Shown: positions 8,024 to 35,964 of the stretch, piece after piece
How positions within the stretch are numbered: position 1 is the stretch's first letter
Layout of the letters: each line of letters starts with the position of its first letter
The notes under the pieces: generated by a model
Told to the model about the DNA's origin: nothing
Database searches by the model: none
The model's input: the letters and a program-made list of their open reading frames with translations, nothing else
Position numbers and translations under genes: made by a program
NCBI GenBank assembly: GCA_049472355.1
Contig: JBLIRP010000002.1
Location: forward strand, 35,252-99,251
Direction of reading: 5' to 3'
DNA length: 64,000 nucleotides
Source: a bacterium
GTDB taxonomy: Bacteria; SZUA-182; DTGQ01; JAFGSM01

Positions 8024-8959
8024 TCAGGCCATAAATAAAGAGATTTCCAATTTTTCCATGATCTTATATATGGGTTTTTCCTTATGTTTAATAATGGTCA
8101 GAGCGGCATCCGCCATTTGGCATACCTCTTTAACCTTTGCTTGAGAAAGATCGGTTTTTTTCAATCTAAAAGGCAATTGCTGCAGAAATGATTGATCGGA
8201 TTCAAGTCTCATGGAAGCAATCAAAGGGATGATCTCAGAAAGTTGATTATATAAAATATCGCCGTTTTCAAAATCAAAAGGAAAACTCCCAAAGGACACG
8301 ATCACTTCCTGTCCGATCCGTTGCATCTCATTTTCGACAATTCCGGCATTTGCTCCTTGCCATGTCTTATTAAAAATCATCATCGCAATCTTCAGATCCA
8401 GGCCAATGGATTCTAAATCTTCTTCCTTCTCCGGTTTTCCGGAAGGGGGCATTCTCTCCTTTAAATCCTGTCTCAAGGCCTGGAAAAATCGGGTGAGAAA
8501 ACGCTCTATATTCATTGAATTCAAAAGCGTCTCATTCAAAGGAAGCAATTCATTCACCACCTGAAAAAATTTGTGTTTCTGGCTTGATCTTACATTAAGA
8601 TAACCCAGGAAATACCCAAAAGAAATGACAGGATCGAAATGGATCAGGCATTGCATGATCCGGTGAGGAAAACCTTCTTTATTTACCTTTTCAAGGCTAA
8701 AGAGAAGAATGGGTACTATTGATTCGGCATCCTGCCCCTGAATGGTTTCCATTGCGGCTTGCGCATTATCTTTGTTGTCCGATGAAAGAAATTGAGCCAT
8801 GGTCGCCTTGCTTGAAGATGACAGCCGCTTTTTTGTTTCTCTCTTTAATGACTCTCTTGATCGTATAAGGGCAAAGAGTCCATCAAGCCAAGGGAAAAGA
8901 TCCAATTTACGTTCTTTCCATTGAGATTCCAAATCGTTAAAATCCAATTCGATTTTCAT
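8024..8959 (-). CDS. Hypothetical, helical (HEAT-like) protein
   Basis: 311-codon ORF in AT-rich DNA; no family recognised. Confidence 0.65.
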   Translation of the reverse strand: MKIELDFNDLESQWKERKLDLFPWLDGLFALIRSRESLKRETKKRLSSSSKATMAQFLSSDNKDNAQAAMETIQGQDAESIVPILLFSLEKVNKEGFPHRIMQCLIHFDPVISFGYFLGYLNVRSSQKHKFFQVVNELLPLNETLLNSMNIERFLTRFFQALRQDLKERMPPSGKPEKEEDLESIGLDLKIAMMIFNKTWQGANAGIVENEMQRIGQEVIVSFGSFPFDFENGDILYNQLSEIIPLIASMRLESDQSFLQQLPFRLKKTDLSQAKVKEVCQMADAALTIIKHKEKPIYKIMEKLEISLFMA

Positions 8960-9657: not shown

Positions 9658-10656
9658 ATGAAGACAATAATATTTGTTGGATTTATTTTATTAGGATTTA
9701 TCCCAATCATTATTATTTTAAATCTTTTTCTTTACAAGCTCTATCATAATTTTGCCGAAAAATCATTCGAAAATAACAATTGTATCGTTCTTACAAATGA
9801 GAAAATATGTGATGTTCTTGAAAATTGCAGTCCTTCGAAATCAATTATGATTTTTAAGTCTGCAATTTGTGACAATTGTGAAGTTGAAGGTTTGAGATAT
9901 TACACAAAGTATCCGTTTGGGTCCAATATTGTTACGGCTCATGATAATCATAGAAGAGCGATTATTGCCTTTAACATTGGGCAGATGCTTTCAAAAGGAA
10001 AATTAGATCATGATGATATGAATTTATGTGCCGATATTCTCATCTGTTTAACGAATTATACAAAAGAGACTTACTACACGCAGCTTTTTGCATGGCAAAG
10101 CTTAGTTAATTTGTTTTATTTTCAAAAAGAGGCATTACTTGATCGTATCACCATTGATTATATAAAAGCCAGTATTACAAGAAATTTTCAGACAGGTATC
10201 GGGCCTATTAAATTTATTTTTGATATCAAAGCCCATAAAAGTATGAAAAAGAATTCAGAGGACTTTATCAAGGAAATAATACTGTTTGCTATAAGACATG
10301 CAGCGATGCCTCTGCGTGCGCTTTTGGTGTTCAAATTGAATAAAAGTCCTCATTTTGACCAGACTCAAAAGACCGAATATATGAAAAATTTGCCCAAGAA
10401 TCGCGAATTTGAAAGGTTTTTAATGCAGATGAAGGTTCTATCCTTTGGTTTCGCTCGGGAGGAATTAGAGGAAGGGATAAAAAATCTTGGTTTGCAGCCG
10501 CCCCCATATTCCAGTAAAACGACTGAAGGGGAGATCGTCCAACTTTTACTCAAAGATTTCATTGAAGAGATCTACGTGCCTGTATCCTATTTGATGCACA
10601 ATTATGATCGCTGGGATATACCGAGGCATCAGTCGGGAGATTTCTTATGGTATTAG
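9658..10656 (+). CDS. Unrecognised membrane-anchored protein, paralog 1
   Basis: N-terminal TM helix; colinear with 33784-34779 along its whole length. Confidence 0.85.
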   Translation: MKTIIFVGFILLGFIPIIIILNLFLYKLYHNFAEKSFENNNCIVLTNEKICDVLENCSPSKSIMIFKSAICDNCEVEGLRYYTKYPFGSNIVTAHDNHRRAIIAFNIGQMLSKGKLDHDDMNLCADILICLTNYTKETYYTQLFAWQSLVNLFYFQKEALLDRITIDYIKASITRNFQTGIGPIKFIFDIKAHKSMKKNSEDFIKEIILFAIRHAAMPLRALLVFKLNKSPHFDQTQKTEYMKNLPKNREFERFLMQMKVLSFGFAREELEEGIKNLGLQPPPYSSKTTEGEIVQLLLKDFIEEIYVPVSYLMHNYDRWDIPRHQSGDFLWY

Positions 10657-10753: not shown

Positions 10754-11227
10754 TTATTCCGAATGAGAAGCGGCCCGGTAGAGTTCGATCGCTGATTTTT
10801 TAAGATCCGCCTCAGCGGCCTTTTCATCAAAGCCCACTCTTCCTACCTGGCCTTCCAGCCAGTTCTGAACCCTTTCCCTGGCGAGAACGGCCAAATCGAC
10901 CTCTGCCTCCCGAGTCACCTTTTCGGCCCCGAATGAAAGCACGGTGACCCTGTTATTCTTAACCTCCAGGAATCCGCCGGCAACAACGACCCAATGGGCC
11001 TCTCCATCCTTTTCATATCGAAGGGGTGCAATAGGCAAGCGGACCAACATAGCGGCATGGTCAGCCAGAATACCGATATATTTCTCTTTGGTCAGTTCGC
11101 CTTCCTCCTGCTCACCTTCCAGGTCCCTGACCACCACAATGTCTATTTCATCATCCTTCAATACACACTTTTCAGGAGTGAGCACTTCGAGGGATATTTT
11201 TCCCTTCCCTTTTTTCAGCTTAGCCAT
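10754..11227 (-). CDS. atpC: F1 epsilon subunit
   Basis: LEVLTPE, IGILADHAAML and VAGGFLEV motifs; acidic insertion. Confidence 0.92.
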   Translation of the reverse strand: MAKLKKGKGKISLEVLTPEKCVLKDDEIDIVVVRDLEGEQEEGELTKEKYIGILADHAAMLVRLPIAPLRYEKDGEAHWVVVAGGFLEVKNNRVTVLSFGAEKVTREAEVDLAVLARERVQNWLEGQVGRVGFDEKAAEADLKKSAIELYRAASHSE

Positions 11228-11244: not shown

Positions 11245-12693
<1,449 letters not shown>

Positions 12694-13647
12694 TTAGAAT
12701 GCTGTTTGTGATACAGACTCTTGCTCGATTACTCTGGCTGCGCTAAGAATGCCTAATAAATCCAGGGTGATTAAGTCCCTTCTCATTCGATTATATTGGA
12801 TACCCATTTCATGTAACTTTTCTGCGGCCCGGTCCGAGGCATCTTCCATGGCCATCATCCGTGCGCCCTGCTCACTGGCATATGATTCCAATAGCAGATC
12901 AAAGATCTGTATCTTGAAATACATGGGGATCAATTCCTTCAAAATGGTGAGGGAATCCGGTTCGTAGATCCATTTGATGCGTGCGGTTTTATCCTTTGTG
13001 GTCTGCTCTTCAAGACCGAAACTGAACGGCAGCAGCTTGATCACCTTGGGTTCACGTTTGGCGGGTCCATGAAACTTTGTATAGGCACAGTATATCTCAT
13101 CGATATTCTTGTGCAGAAAGAGATCGGTCATATTCATGATCAGAGACAAGGCATCCGATATGGAAACACCTTGCTCCGACCAGGGTTCGATATTTAATAT
13201 CGGAAACGGCGTATTTTTTTTAAAAAAACGCTCACCTCTGAGCCCTTTGATCCAAACACCAACCTCGGCATTCTTATTCTTTCTCAAAATAGTATCCAAA
13301 AAAATCTGAGTCGTTTTGCCTATCCGGCCATTATAATTGCCGCACATACCAATATCCGAAGCAATGACGAAAACGATAATCCTGTTTTGTTTACGCTTTT
13401 TAATTAATAGAGGTGATATTTCGGTCATTACCTCTTCGGAAAACATATCCTTCTCAGAAAAAAGCGCGATCTCGGATTGGATTAAGGCGATTTCCCTCAT
13501 TCTTTCAGCGAACATGCTCAGCGTGGCCGCCTTAAAACGCGTCCTGGCCAGCTTTGCCGCCGCCACAGTGGACATGGTCTCAGTGGTGCCTTTGATATTC
13601 TCAACACTTCTCATTCTGTTCTTTAAATCAATCAACTTCTGTGACAT
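12694..13647 (-). CDS. atpG: F1 gamma subunit
   Basis: TM..VAAAKL, SDIGMCGNYN, SEQGARMMAME.A, YNRMRR..IT. Confidence 0.95.
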   Translation of the reverse strand: MSQKLIDLKNRMRSVENIKGTTETMSTVAAAKLARTRFKAATLSMFAERMREIALIQSEIALFSEKDMFSEEVMTEISPLLIKKRKQNRIIVFVIASDIGMCGNYNGRIGKTTQIFLDTILRKNKNAEVGVWIKGLRGERFFKKNTPFPILNIEPWSEQGVSISDALSLIMNMTDLFLHKNIDEIYCAYTKFHGPAKREPKVIKLLPFSFGLEEQTTKDKTARIKWIYEPDSLTILKELIPMYFKIQIFDLLLESYASEQGARMMAMEDASDRAAEKLHEMGIQYNRMRRDLITLDLLGILSAARVIEQESVSQTAF

Positions 13648-13661
13648 AATTGATACCCGCT

Positions 13662-15473
13662 TTAGACAAATTGCTTTTTGAACTCAGCAATGATTTCCCT
13701 TAAGCCTGAATTGATCTCCGGGGTCAAATCCTTCTTTTCCTGAATCATGTCCATGATATTCTGATAATTCTGATGAGCAAAAGCCACCAACCCCTTCTCG
13801 AACTCCCCGACCCGTTTTACAGGAATATCATCCATCAGGCTGTTGACCACCGCGTAAAGCACCAAGGCCTCCTCTGCCAACGGCATAGGCGCATACTGAA
13901 TCTGTTTTAATAATTCACGCCCCCTTTCCCCTCTGGCAAGCTGGGCCTTTGTGGCCTCATCCACCTCTGCACCAAATTTTACAAAGGCCTGCATCTCATG
14001 ATATTGAGCAAGGTCTATTCTCAACCTTCCGGCGATCTTTTTGATGATCTTGGTTTGCGCTGCACCACCGACCCTAGATACCGACAAACCGACATTAATG
14101 GCCGGCCGAAAGCCCGTATTAAACAAACCGGATTCGAGATATATCTGGCCATCCGTAATCGATATTACATTGGTCGAGATATATGAGGTGACATCCCCGC
14201 CCAGTGTCTCGATGATCGGTATGGCGGTCAACGACCCCCCGCCTTTTTCCTTACTCAGTTTGGCGGCCCTTTCCAACAATCTTGAATGCACATAAAAAAT
14301 ATCACCCGGATAGGCCTCCCTGCCGATAGGTCTCTTCAAGAGAGCCGACATCTCCCTGTAAGCCACCGCATGTTTGGAAAGATCGTCGAAAATAACCAAC
14401 GCATCCCCGCCCTGCTCCATGAACTCCTCACCGATGGCGCAGGCAGTATAAGGCGCCAGGTATTTAAAGGCGGTCTGCTCATTGGCTAGCGCAGCGACAA
14501 TAATCGTATGGTCCAATGCCCCCTCTCTTCGCAAGACCTCCACGACCTTGGCCACGGCTGCGGCCTTCTGACCGATGGCCGCATAGACACATATCAGATT
14601 GTTGCCCTTCTGATTTATTATGGTATCTATGGCCAGGGTGGTCTTTCCGATCTTCCTGTCGCCGATAATCAATTCCCTCTGGCCGCGCCCTATGGGGATC
14701 ATTGCGTCTATCGCCTTTATCCCGGTCTGTACCGGTTCCTTTACAGGCTGGCGCGTCACCACACGGGGAGCGATCCTTTCCACTAATCGATAGCTCGTGG
14801 TGAGGATCTTGCCTTTACCATCGATGGGCTGACCGACAGCGTTCACTATCCTGCCGATCATTCCCTTCCCAACAGGAATCTCCAACTGATGGCCGGTACA
14901 AACAACCTTGGTTCCTTCCTTAATATCTTCTTCAGCTCCTAGTAAAATACAACCTACTGCATCCTGCTCCAAACTAAAGGCCAAACCGTAAACGCTTCCG
15001 GCAAATTCAACCACTTCCATAGAACCCACGTTCTCAAGGCCCGCGACCCTGGCGATTCCGTCGCCGACCTGGAGGACAATCCCCTCCTGGCGCATGTCCT
15101 CAATCTTAAAGGTCGGTTTCGTGGCTTCTATAATCCGCCGTAGTTCCTTGGTAATGTCCTCTGTTTTCAATTGTTGGACATCGCCCTTCAATTCCATAAA
15201 CTTTCTGTCTAATTCACTTACAAAACTCTGCTTGACATCAAGACTGATCTTCTTGTTTCTGTCAAGAAACAGCATTGGGCTTTCCTGTTTAGCGTCCGTA
15301 AATACCTTGATCTGTATTTTCTTTCCCGCAATCTTGGAAAGCTCTTGCTCCAAATTCTCCACAAAATCGGATCTATAAACAGTCGGGCTCAACAAAACCA
15401 AAGGTTGACTGGCGTTATTTAAAGCCTCCTTTAAACCTTCCTGTTTAGCTTCCATCTGTTTAACATTCTCCAT
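13662..15473 (-). CDS. atpA: F1 alpha subunit with ~100-aa delta-like N-terminal extension
   Basis: [38 protein letters not shown]; canonical alpha N-terminus only begins near residue 100. Confidence 0.97.
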
Positions 15474-15868
15474 AATCCTTAGCCTTCCATCATAAGTTTC
15501 TTATTATTCAGCAGCCATATTCGACATCCCTCAGCTATTCCCCATATTCCCACTCTAAAATGATAATGACTCTCCTCTACAAACGCCACATACTGGATTC
15601 ATACGAATCAATTCTCGTAAAAATCCTCAAGGCCGATTTCATCTGTACCCGATGAAAAATAGCTGCAGAATAATTATGACAAACTCCATATTGATTAAAT
15701 CGTACGATATTTACTGCAAAACATAAATTGGCTTTAAGGTATAACCCTGATAGATCCAATAACGGTTATTTTGAATCCGGCTCTTGTTATAGGCTACAAC
15801 TCTGTATTCCTCTATTCCATCATAGGCTACAGCCGAAACACAAAAAACCCCCAGGAGCGGCACCCTGA

Positions 15869-16267
15869 TCAAATGATCAGAATCAATGCGACAACCAGGC
15901 AATAAAGACATAATGCCTCAATGATGGCCATACCGATCAACATGGTCATAAAAAGCTTTCCCTGGATCTCGGGCTGTCTTGACATACCTTCCAATGAGGC
16001 CATTCCGAACTTGGCAATCCCCAGGGAGGCGCCGAATGCACCCCAACCGAGCAATATGGCTGCAGCTACTGCCTTTAAAGCCTCAACCCAGGCGACTTCG
16101 CCACCCTTTGTTGTTACGATAGCTGCGGATTCTTCCGCCCATAATGCCAAGGGAGATGACAAAGCCAGTAGAATCGTATTGACAAATACAAAATAAATGG
16201 TTTTTTTGGACCGTATAACCCTTATAACCCTGTTCTTTGTGGAATTGTATAATGATGCAATAGACAT
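15869..16267 (-). CDS. atpE: F0 c subunit with N-terminal leader
   Basis: SRQPE loop and IIEAL carboxylate; ATG 16267 follows SD AAGGAGG; leader ends ALWA-EE. Confidence 0.93.
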   Translation of the reverse strand: MSIASLYNSTKNRVIRVIRSKKTIYFVFVNTILLALSSPLALWAEESAAIVTTKGGEVAWVEALKAVAAAILLGWGAFGASLGIAKFGMASLEGMSRQPEIQGKLFMTMLIGMAIIEALCLYCLVVALILII

Positions 16268-16332: not shown

Positions 16333-16812
16333 TTAGGATGCCTGCCGTAGACTGTCCAATATGACCTTCTCTACAAGTTCCTTATGACCGTCCTTCTTCG
16401 CCAGATCCGGAAGCGCCCTGTAAGCGGCTGAACTGACCAGATCGATCAATTTCAGATTCGTCTCCTGGAGCAGTTCCTCCCTCTCCCTGGCGATTTCAGC
16501 ACGGGCGTTTTCTATGATCTTGTCGGCCTCTTCCTTGGCCTTTGCGATGATATCATTTTTCATCTTTTCCGTTTGGTTCAAAATCTTCTGTGCATCTACC
16601 CTGCTTTGAGCAAGAATCTCATCCCGATCCCTCAATGCCTTCTCTTGTTCCTCTTTGGCGATTGCACGTTGCCGTAACCCCTCCTCGATCTTTTCCTTTC
16701 TTGCATCCAATATCTCCATTATGGGTTTGAAGAAGAATTTTTTCATAAGAAAAAGAAGGATAAAGAAATTGACAACTAAAAATATTGTTTTTGTAAAGTC
16801 AAAGCCTATCAT
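16333..16812 (-). CDS. atpF: F0 b subunit
   Basis: VNFFILLFLMKKFFFKPI..ILDARKEKI then coiled coil. Confidence 0.93.
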   Translation of the reverse strand: MIGFDFTKTIFLVVNFFILLFLMKKFFFKPIMEILDARKEKIEEGLRQRAIAKEEQEKALRDRDEILAQSRVDAQKILNQTEKMKNDIIAKAKEEADKIIENARAEIAREREELLQETNLKLIDLVSSAAYRALPDLAKKDGHKELVEKVILDSLRQAS

Positions 16813-16878: not shown

Positions 16879-18159
16879 TTAATGTACGCCTAATTCTTCC
16901 TTGAAATAAAACAGACTCAGCATAACAAAGACCAAGGTCTGTATAATCGCGAAAAGGACATCCATGCAGAAGATCATAAATGGAATAAACAAGGGAACTA
17001 CAAAATAATATCTCTTGATTGCAACGTCAGTAACCATCGAAAGCACACTATGCTCGCCAAATATATTACCAAAAAGTCGCAGTGAAAGTGAAAGAAGTCT
17101 TGCTCCATTATCAACAAGATGCAGCGCAATGAGGAACAAAACAATTATTTTTACAGGAGCCTGTTTTAAGATCCCGAAGGCTATGTTTAATAATTTTGAT
17201 ATAGGCATCCAAACAGCGGATAAAATCTTTTTATGAAAAGTTAAAGCCCTATTCAAATACCGTAAAATAAAGAAAACAATCAAAATAAGTGAATACATAC
17301 TGACGATATTAACGATTACGGTATGCTTGAAGGGTATAAAAAGAATGAACATGATGCCGATACACATAAGCAATGTGCCAATGCCGTAAAAAATCGAATA
17401 TTTGACGAATGAAGCGTCCTCCCCGTCTTCCAATCCCGAGATCCTCAGGAAAAAGCCGACCATGGACTCCGCAAGACACTGAATTCCCCCTGGAACATCA
17501 TCTCTCTGTAGCCTTGATCGTATCCAAAAACCGAATGCCAGCAATAAAACGGTCGCCGCCACACAATAGACAGCCATCAGTTGAAATGGCAAGGATAATA
17601 ATACGGCAATATTATCGATCAAATAGAGAATCAAGAATGGAATCACGAAGAGCTTCCACATGAAGGAACCTTTTTTGGACTGCGTCCTTGAGCCTTGCCC
17701 CTCATGCCTAAAAACCTCTTCCTCATCCGAGGCCTCTTTTTTCCCAAGCCCTGGGATTGGGTCCAGCCATAATTTGGCCGCCTTTTTGGGTCCATTTAAT
17801 TTTATATTGTAATACTGTAAGCCGATGACAACGATCAAGGCCAATGCAAAGGTGTTGCTCCAATCACTGGTTGGCGGATGTGCATGAGGAATTATGAGAA
17901 AAAAATTGGAGATTAAGATAAATAGAACAAAGGTACCCAGAAACGGAAGTAAGTGAGCCAGCTTTTCCTGCCCCAGCTCCGTCCTTATAATGTTGTCCAG
18001 GGATTCTACCAGAACCTCGGCAATATTTTGAACTGAGCCGGGCGCGCCATCCTTTTGCCTGTTTTTGATCGCTAAATACGAAAAGATGAGAAGAATTGCC
18101 GATGTAATTGAACAATAGATTATTTCATAGATCCACGTTAAACCAAAATGAACATGCAT
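16879..18159 (-). CDS. atpB: F0 a subunit, enlarged (426 aa) by internal duplication
   Basis: PG.VQN.AE, PPTSD, LSLSLRLFGNIFGEH (essential Arg), IQTLVF. Confidence 0.92.
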   Translation of the reverse strand: MHVHFGLTWIYEIIYCSITSAILLIFSYLAIKNRQKDGAPGSVQNIAEVLVESLDNIIRTELGQEKLAHLLPFLGTFVLFILISNFFLIIPHAHPPTSDWSNTFALALIVVIGLQYYNIKLNGPKKAAKLWLDPIPGLGKKEASDEEEVFRHEGQGSRTQSKKGSFMWKLFVIPFLILYLIDNIAVLLSLPFQLMAVYCVAATVLLLAFGFWIRSRLQRDDVPGGIQCLAESMVGFFLRISGLEDGEDASFVKYSIFYGIGTLLMCIGIMFILFIPFKHTVIVNIVSMYSLILIVFFILRYLNRALTFHKKILSAVWMPISKLLNIAFGILKQAPVKIIVLFLIALHLVDNGARLLSLSLRLFGNIFGEHSVLSMVTDVAIKRYYFVVPLFIPFMIFCMDVLFAIIQTLVFVMLSLFYFKEELGVH

Positions 18160-35028: not shown

Positions 35029-35964
35029 ATGGGGCATCCGATACAGAAGGCAAATATTCTCATTATCGATGAGGTGGAATCCGCTAAGTCCCTGATGGAT
35101 CTTCTTAAAAAGGAAAATTTCAGGGTCAGCCCCGCAGAGAATATTGCCGATGCACTACATAAGGCAGCCAACGAGATCTTCGACATCATCCTTCTGGAAA
35201 TCAACCTACCGGCTATAAACGGTTTGAAAGGCCTGCTCGATCTCCGCAGGGTATCCCCTCATTCGCATGTCATTGTGATGACATCCTCCCCATCCGTGGA
35301 AACCGCGGTATCCACCATGAAAAGCGGCGCGGTCGACTATCTCGTGAAGCCCATAAAAAATGATGACTTCCTCGATATTATCCGCACAAATATTCATATC
35401 GACCTCAAGGACGATATCCTCACCAAGCTGGGAGAAAAGATAAAGTCCATCCGGAAGGGCAAGGGCATCAAGATAAAGCAACTGAGCAGCCGTTCCGGAC
35501 TTACCGAAAGCTCCATATCCATGATCGAGAACGGCAAGATATCACCCTCCATCACCACCATCAATAAGATCGCTGTGGCCCTCGGCGTCCATCCGATCGA
35601 ATTCTTTGAGATCGAACGTCATAAGCGGTGGATTGTAACGAGAAAGAATGAACGTGAGAGGGTTCAGATTTCGGGCAACGAGAATGTCCTCGAGTACCTC
35701 TGCAAGGAGAAGGGTTCGTCCAAAAACGAGATCTATATCTCGAATCTCGCCATGAATCAGAAATCCTATGAGGAACGGCTCAACCACGAGGGGGAAAAAT
35801 TCTGCATAGTCCTTAGGGGAACGATCGACGTCGAACTGGGAAGCGAAATCATCACCCTCAACGAGGGAGATACGATCCTCTTCGACTCCATGATCCCTCA
35901 TCTCTGGAGAAGCTCAAAGTCCAAGGAAAGCCGCTCGCTCTGGTTGATATCGCGCAATGCCTGA
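35029..35964 (+). CDS. Receiver-XRE HTH-cupin transcriptional regulator
   Basis: REC fold (GAVDYLVKP), ISMIENGKISPS HTH, HEGE...GD...FDS..PH cupin. Confidence 0.9.
   Translation: MGHPIQKANILIIDEVESAKSLMDLLKKENFRVSPAENIADALHKAANEIFDIILLEINLPAINGLKGLLDLRRVSPHSHVIVMTSSPSVETAVSTMKSGAVDYLVKPIKNDDFLDIIRTNIHIDLKDDILTKLGEKIKSIRKGKGIKIKQLSSRSGLTESSISMIENGKISPSITTINKIAVALGVHPIEFFEIERHKRWIVTRKNERERVQISGNENVLEYLCKEKGSSKNEIYISNLAMNQKSYEERLNHEGEKFCIVLRGTIDVELGSEIITLNEGDTILFDSMIPHLWRSSKSKESRSLWLISRNA

Follow-up and report, generated by a model that had tools for sequence, protein, structure and literature searches.

A natural fusion of a delta C-terminal-like domain to F1 alpha in a distinct clade of F-type ATP synthases that may carry more than one peripheral stalk

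Introduction

In canonical F-type ATP synthases, the N-terminal domain of subunit delta lies on the three-fold axis of F1, while its C-terminal domain (delta-C) binds one alpha subunit and the b dimer. How is the peripheral stalk held in an operon that lacks atpH—the delta gene—at its usual place and encodes an alpha subunit some hundred residues longer than normal? The question is posed by contig JBLIRP010000002.1 of a bacterial genome assembly (GCA_049472355.1), from which we analysed a stretch of 64,000 nt, forward-strand positions 35,252–99,251 (hereafter the window; coordinates below count from its first letter). An earlier reading of the letters alone (the sequence-only reading) had proposed that a delta-C-like domain is here fused to alpha.

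The stakes are energetic: the H+/ATP ratio fixes the lowest proton motive force that permits ATP synthesis. Ueno et al. (Nat Commun 2025; PMC12229609) deleted residues 2–104 of Bacillus PS3 delta and fused residues 105–178 to alpha, obtaining a delta(dN)-alpha enzyme with up to three stalks, about twice the wild-type content of a and b, an H+/ATP ratio of 5.8 versus 3.0 and an equilibrium proton motive force of 68 versus 133 mV. Particles with zero, one, two and three stalks made up 15, 51, 26 and 8%, respectively, and the enzyme shed stalks. Their study shows a doubling of H+/ATP through the number of stalks and a subunits, leaves open whether nature uses the delta-alpha route, and names natural delta(dN)-alpha fusions as awaiting verification (Acidaminococcus fermentans D2RLW6, UniProt G4Q3K6 and A0A1I2C5T3); the delta-C-alpha architecture is already published. 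Two other departures from the canonical plan are described: the natural F1Fo of Chloroflexus aurantiacus (PDB 9ITJ) has two stalks and two a subunits (PMC12002316), and N-ATPases follow the gene order atpDCQRBEFAG with delta-C fused to b (PMC2881411).

Results

An F-type operon with an extended alpha and no delta

The operon lies on the minus strand in the order atpB-F-E-A-G-D-C and holds a complete set of a, c, gamma, beta and epsilon genes together with a separate b of ordinary length. It runs from atpB (16879..18159; a 426-aa subunit a, part of which is repeated in tandem within it) through atpF (16333..16812; subunit b, 159 aa, free of any delta fusion and above the TIGR01144 cut-off), atpE (15869..16267; subunit c, with a long N-terminal leader) and the 603-aa atpA open reading frame (13662..15473) to atpG (12694..13647), atpD (11245..12678) and atpC (10754..11227). 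A 395-bp non-coding gap (15474..15868, read on the same strand) separates the stop codon of atpE from the atpA ATG, where atpH would be expected, and for it the sequence-only reading reported no delta frame; a check of all six frames of 15474–15868 likewise found no delta-like ORF. A ribosome-binding-site-like GGAAGG (15483..15488, minus strand) stands 9 nt before the atpA ATG at 15473.

A terminator-like hairpin (15851..15868, minus strand) occupies the end of the gap directly 3′ of atpE, between the Fo and F1 genes; one was found, against 0.3 ± 0.5 in shuffled sequence, and it could, tentatively, lift Fo message over F1. A promoter scan of the gap returned a single site, fewer than in shuffles. 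Contigs of the operon or of close relatives were present in three runs of one RNA study: an identical contig covers 15570–16528, and another with 40 differences covers 14795–15215, across the junction between extension and alpha. As these hits are contigs, DNA carry-over is possible and there is no silent-region control, we make no use of them as evidence of expression.

Against TIGR00962, AtpA scored 729 bits (cut-off 484), and only residues 103–603 (13662..15167) were matched, so that about 102 residues precede a normal alpha body, much where the sequence-only reading had placed the boundary (near residue 100). The motifs which that reading quoted from the extension are present in AtpA. The extension comprises a short conserved helix (residues ~8–18; 15420..15452), a diverged domain resembling delta/OSCP's C-terminal domain (residues ~19–93; 15195..15419) and a linker of about nine residues (15168..15194) directly preceded by Met93, all on the minus strand. 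Beta scored 723 against TIGR01039, the canonical bacterial F1Fo equivalog (cut-off 463). A motif search of alpha recovered what we take to be its P-loop and arginine finger, and by the same search and assumption the catalytic motifs of both alpha and beta, the latter encoded by atpD, are intact.

Two further genes lie beyond atpC. A 311-aa gene (8024–8959, minus strand) is HEAT-like by ESM Atlas features (0.91–0.92) and has no Pfam or NCBIfam family match; of the 20 class genomes, 12 have it (11 of which are also fusion carriers), and it adjoins the 3′ end of atpC in several, and possibly encodes an accessory factor. Between it and atpC, on the opposite strand, lies a 332-aa orphan gene (9658–10656, plus strand) that is shared with genome G001.

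The extension is conserved and under selection

Twelve of the 20 class genomes carry the extension (8 of the 11 that are at least 90% complete), in alphas with 66–97% full-length identity. Among the 80 nearest alpha loci of the genome collection, it was found in none of the 75 unfused ones, the other five being carriers, four of which repeat loci already counted; presence in 12 of 20 class genomes and in 0 of 75 unfused loci shows that the extension is not chance read-through. Over residues 8–92, Nei-Gojobori dN/dS was 0.047–0.079 in eight of nine pairs (the ninth was saturated), as against 0.012–0.039 for the alpha core in six unsaturated pairs, and the extension is under purifying selection.

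A start at the internal Met near residue 93, which the sequence-only reading named as a point on which its proposal might fail, is not supported: dN/dS is low upstream of it, and 4 of 13 homologues have no ATG, GTG or TTG anywhere in positions 84–106. In that interval, ATG falls at 93 in four homologues and at 94 in three, and two have TTG only. At the matching upstream place, where starts in the 12 class loci were picked by inspection, ATG is preceded by GGAAGG in nine and by AGGA or GAGG in three. Three NCBI records in the AtpA cluster (511/512 aa) begin at Met93; given the dN/dS values and the lack of conserved start codons at 84–106, these records are very likely truncated. Together these observations lead us to infer strongly that the extension is translated.

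A probable remote homologue of the delta C-terminal domain

Sequence profiles approach delta-C gradually. Neither the window protein nor any of the 12 class members matched Pfam OSCP (PF00213; gathering cut-off 22.3 bits), and the best homologue reached 19.3 bits, under the cut-off; four homologues matched PF00213 positions 103–170 with E-values of 0.0013–0.01, also below it. When aligned by HHalign with a reference set of 22 delta C-domains, the class-only profile scored 35.5%, rising to 83.2% (E 8.7e-6) when distant relatives were added and to 93.5% (E 2.2e-7) for a group of 616-aa relatives alone, the latter two values being pairwise and obtained without decoy profiles. A delta-C HMM gave 7.0 bits on the window extension, a score reached by none of 200 shuffles; only 5 of the 13 close extensions outscored every shuffle, whereas all nine distant single-domain homologues beat 200 of 200, with 12–28 bits. 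A Gly and Asp-x-Ser pattern that hardly varies among delta C-domains is altered in the extension. A sequence search of PDB chains with two extension profiles returned unrelated chains only (best E 0.02–0.19), and an ESM Atlas search with residues 8–100 peaked at 0.87, all matches being under 0.9.

An AlphaFold2 model of the extension built from 12 sequences (mean pLDDT 62.6; 68–86 over residues 11–80) shows the order helix, strand, helix, three strands, helix; its domain, strand-helix-strand-strand-strand-helix, compares with the four-stranded sheet and two helices of the PF00213 C-domain at Z no higher than 6.0 and rmsd of about 5–6. Foldseek placed the engineered fusion 9jc1_I at rank 1, and 9jc1 and delta chains filled ranks 1–4 and 6, with no E-value below 0.001. 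An unbiased VIA search of 48,161 entries put delta/OSCP chains at ranks 1–4, 6, 7 and 10, the best pairing model residues 23–89 with residues 107–174 of 6n2y_I (PS3 delta; Z 5.8, rmsd 5.1, 66 aligned). In a second VIA look, the first 24 rows were all delta/OSCP, b-delta or engineered-fusion chains, and 9jc1_I aligned across model residues 25–127. Chains of subunit E and of FliH turn up in these lists too (Z 3.4–4.3), ranked under the delta chains. With every Z below 8, the fold match by itself is no proof.

Profile likeness and predicted fold nevertheless agree on the resemblance to delta-C that the sequence-only reading had noticed, though the signal for the window protein taken alone is weak. 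From the fold match, the position in the operon and the bridging sequences, we consider it very probable that the extension descends from delta-C, and treat the domain as a remote homologue of PF00213 and not as a member of the family.

In the short helix ahead of the domain, K15 and L18 are invariant and L14 nearly so across 12 sequences, and the segment is helical in the model. The second VIA look aligned it with residues ~152–165 of mycobacterial b-delta chains, presumably the last helix of their b part. Judging from the model, it may sit in the b-docking groove; alternatively, the monomer model may have placed it there because b was absent.

Subunits a, b and c

Residues 14–190 of subunit a align with residues ~197–358 at 28% identity (E 1.7e-12), and all five long a subunits tested show two HMM domains. 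The duplication adds about 165 residues and takes in three quarters of a, counted from the N-terminus: its first copy stops where the helix with the essential Arg starts, with Gln there in the window genome, the second N-part is much diverged (14–21 bits) and there is only one complete C-terminal half. The long form occurs whole in G000, G005, G006, G007 and G010 and is seen in part in G001, with 424–426 aa in the five class loci seen whole; other fusion carriers and metagenome members have a short a of ~250–270 aa. An AlphaFold2 model of the 426-aa protein from five sequences had a pLDDT of 39.9. Going by its sequence, the enlarged a may crowd the c-ring and limit the number of a subunits, or could add a second b anchor.

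Subunit c has a single Glu in an EALxxY context and no Na+ motif (criteria from PMC2881411), and from its sequence is predicted to be of the proton type. A c leader of about 50 residues is shared by G000, G001, G005, G006, G007 and G010. It ends in what we take to be a signal-peptide-like motif.

The N-ATPase family was considered and set aside: the order is B-F-E-A-G-D-C, b is an ordinary 159 aa and scores 62.7 against the N-type TIGR03321 (246 positions; cut-off 224.7), c has a single Glu, and scores fall short for the N-type alpha/beta models TIGR03324 (587.5 < 750.5) and TIGR03305 (606.7 < 752). No atpR (PF12966) was found in the assembly (87.5% complete) or among the contiguous ORFs of the operon.

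Other ATP synthases in the genome

The absence of atpH noted in the sequence-only reading holds for the gap and the operon and fails for the genome. A six-frame search of the whole assembly (87.5% complete) with the delta-C profile and PF00213 found one delta, on contig C83, where it belongs to a second, canonical F-type operon with a full-length delta; catalytic genes of the V/A type are found on C74, C31 and C130. GC content is 45.8% in the fused operon, 54.0% in the genome and 56.7% in the region of the canonical operon. Ten of the 12 fusion carriers have a full-length delta elsewhere in the genome. From this genome content we infer that the fused enzyme is an accessory, proton-coupled, high-gear copy kept beside a canonical single-stalk F-type enzyme and V/A-type enzymes.

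A cross-phylum clade of fused alphas

Searching with residues 8–125 alone gave one match among 197 candidates. Run against 1.84 billion representatives, a profile picked up ten proteins, seven of them real relatives; P0007, P0010 and P0012, repeat-rich profile matches without an ATP synthase alpha domain, were dropped. A wider profile yielded 43 longer protein clusters, every one an alpha subunit. A search for long proteins bearing delta-C, with one match (a 444-aa b-delta) among 7997 candidates, was too insensitive to serve as a fusion survey.

Gene spacing repeats the pattern of the window. In four class relatives the 13–57 nt between the end of b and alpha are too few to accommodate atpH. 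In metagenome loci of the 616-aa group, b lies directly 5′ of the fused alpha in 11 of 14 (the other three begin too near to tell), and these 11 have two b genes (b′/b) before the fused alpha with no atpH between; the three longest loci of the group continue gamma-beta-epsilon. Source labels, available for few members only, name two Nitrospirota and one Betaproteobacteria MAG.

In a quick LG+G4 tree of 53 rows, 19 fused alpha cores are set off together by a long branch (SH-aLRT 100) and lie apart from the canonical alphas of the class. The tree is discordant with host kinship—a genome of the same genus groups with another family—and a close fused copy occurs in a 0.9-Mb genome (G041), in whose assembly no beta was found. 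We infer that the fused operon moved laterally, binning error being possible.

Various relatives show further rearrangements. In G041, loci L072/L233 comprise a, c, b and fused alpha, interspersed with and followed by unrelated genes. Alphas with two tandem delta-C-like domains occur within the clade (P0008, P0020 and P0021; 719 aa) and, separate from it, in a Bacillota genome (L230 of G110; 709 aa). A full-length delta is in frame with alpha at L234:4265-6475 (G001; 736 aa) and L231:4316-6334 (G234; 672 aa); as the same junction in G000 is a stop/start overlap, the G001 case is either a recent fusion or an assembly indel. Epsilon subunits of 302–308 aa with an insert of ~150 residues are encoded at L163:12687-13613 and L164:12091-12999 (G007 and G010), and a conserved membrane protein of ~188 aa, with no family above cut-off, precedes atpB in b′/b operons (L185:3374-3940, L184:1144-1710 and L179:2-511). 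G013 has operons with delta-C fused to b (L172 and L173; 251 and 241 aa), and both fusion types occur in that one genome.

Among 401 Bacillota genomes, delta-C was found fused to alpha in 12, of which one has two domains and two share identical cores, and the same set includes one full delta-alpha fusion; these counts are a lower bound, only the 29 genomes with weak PF00213 scores having been re-examined. All 12 match PF00213 at E 1e-11 to 1e-20. A free tree sets them apart from the present clade, and we do not claim an independent origin: in an AU test on 40 rows (eight near-duplicates dropped, two added), a single clade of all fusions was not rejected (p 0.70), the constraint giving a tree better by 12.6 log units.

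Discussion

Relation to known enzymes

The window enzyme and the engineered PS3 enzyme (PDB 9JC1) both attach delta-C through a short linker to the N-terminus of alpha, keep an ordinary b, and do without the delta N-domain and a free delta in the operon. They differ in that the aligned parts share 12–15% identity, that the window enzyme is natural and known from its genes, and that the latter has a conserved helix before the domain and a partly duplicated a in its operon. The Acidaminococcus and Bacillota fusions have the same architecture and are likewise known from sequence; whereas the Bacillota fusions are visible to PF00213, the present clade escapes Pfam and stands as a separate group of alphas on a long branch. 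D2RLW6, G4Q3K6 and A0A1I2C5T3 are set beside it by their published description only. The two Chloroflexus stalks come from a dimer of free, shortened delta (PMC12002316), whereas the window enzyme relies on a fusion to alpha. With N-ATPases it shares the lack of atpH, its standing as an extra copy beside a canonical enzyme, and signs of lateral spread.

What is new here is a distinct, Pfam-invisible, cross-phylum alpha clade that reaches Nitrospirota-labelled metagenome proteins and in the window genome is kept beside canonical F-type and V/A-type enzymes; its features are the partly duplicated a, the extra N-terminal helix, the predicted proton-type c and relatives with tandem delta-C domains. 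In the open-access literature we found no paper on this clade and none that tested a natural fusion.

How the enzyme may work, and competing explanations

By analogy with the engineered PS3 enzyme, the covalent link would take the place of the delta N-domain, whose normal position over the three-fold axis restricts the enzyme to one stalk, and the fused domain would let a b dimer dock on each of the three alphas. F1 could then likely have two or three peripheral stalks; with every additional b2 would come a further subunit a, so that the protons used per turn would be proportional to the product of c and a, and about half the proton motive force could suffice for ATP synthesis. The best explanation, and a reasonably probable one, is in our view that the enzyme couples to protons, has two or three stalks and is of use when the proton motive force is low. 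It accommodates the fused frame, its conservation and purifying selection, the absent atpH, the ordinary b and the intact catalytic motifs—all of them observed—and has precedents in the engineered PS3 fusion and in the natural two-stalk, two-a Chloroflexus enzyme. Weighing against it are the silence of PF00213, the low class-only HHalign score, the middling model, the extra helix and the 426-aa a, besides the modest stalk number of the engineered enzyme itself, which averaged 1.26 by cryo-EM and about 2 by gel (PMC12229609).

Its chief competitor, which we think unlikely though deserving of attention, accepts the fusion and has a single site used: the fusion merely stands in for atpH, and a bulky duplicated a, a limited supply of a and b or the first helix keeps two sites empty. 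The 424–426-aa a of five class loci, the alignment of the extra helix with the pre-delta part of mycobacterial b-delta chains, the strong divergence of the delta-C-like domain and the 51% of single-stalk particles in the engineered sample would all fit; yet three identical alphas offer three equivalent sites, which the engineered enzyme filled without strain, the fusion also occurs beside a short a, and the domain is under strong selection. Improbable in our view is an arrangement with several stalks and fewer proton channels, where, as in V/A-type enzymes, one functional a would carry a second b dimer by means of its duplicated outer part, so that the stator is stiffer and H+/ATP is not raised. 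The extent of the duplication, the Gln found in the window genome where the first copy ends and the essential-Arg helix begins, and the single complete C-terminal half speak for it, but the second N-part is much diverged, most clade members examined have a short a, and with a long-a model of such low confidence nothing shows a second b site.

Two further explanations concern the extension itself, and we give each very little credence. It might be translated without being delta-derived—a C-domain like that of V/A-type E or FliH, or an unrelated small alpha/beta fold, with some other role—as the subunit E and FliH hits, the lack of a curated family match and the sub-0.9 ESM Atlas values would allow; delta chains rank higher, however, the domain sits at the place of atpH, and bridging homologues match delta-C in sequence. 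Slightly less credible still is that alpha begins at Met93 behind a decaying remnant, as the three truncated-looking records would have it, since the dN/dS of ~0.07, the 4 of 13 homologues lacking a start codon at 84–106 and the conserved upstream start with its ribosome-binding motif all tell against it.

More speculatively, and in our estimation doubtful, a further step beyond the enzyme with two or three stalks can be imagined: a laterally spreading, cross-phylum F-ATPase subfamily acting as a second low-energy gear beside the canonical enzyme, in which, within the sub-lineage of the window enzyme, the half-duplicated a would anchor two b dimers on one proton channel and so tune stalk and channel number separately, and in which relatives with tandem delta-C domains would offer up to six docking sites per F1.

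Conclusions

The fused architecture is in print and not rare in Bacillota, and cultured Acidaminococcus would be easier to test. Because Pfam does not recognise the present clade and some NCBI records cut its alpha short, annotation-based surveys would miss it. It is a natural, long-evolved candidate for the delta-alpha route, and its stalk interface may be more stable than that of the engineered enzyme, which shed stalks. Because a single-stalk enzyme is kept in the same genomes, both can be compared within one cell type.
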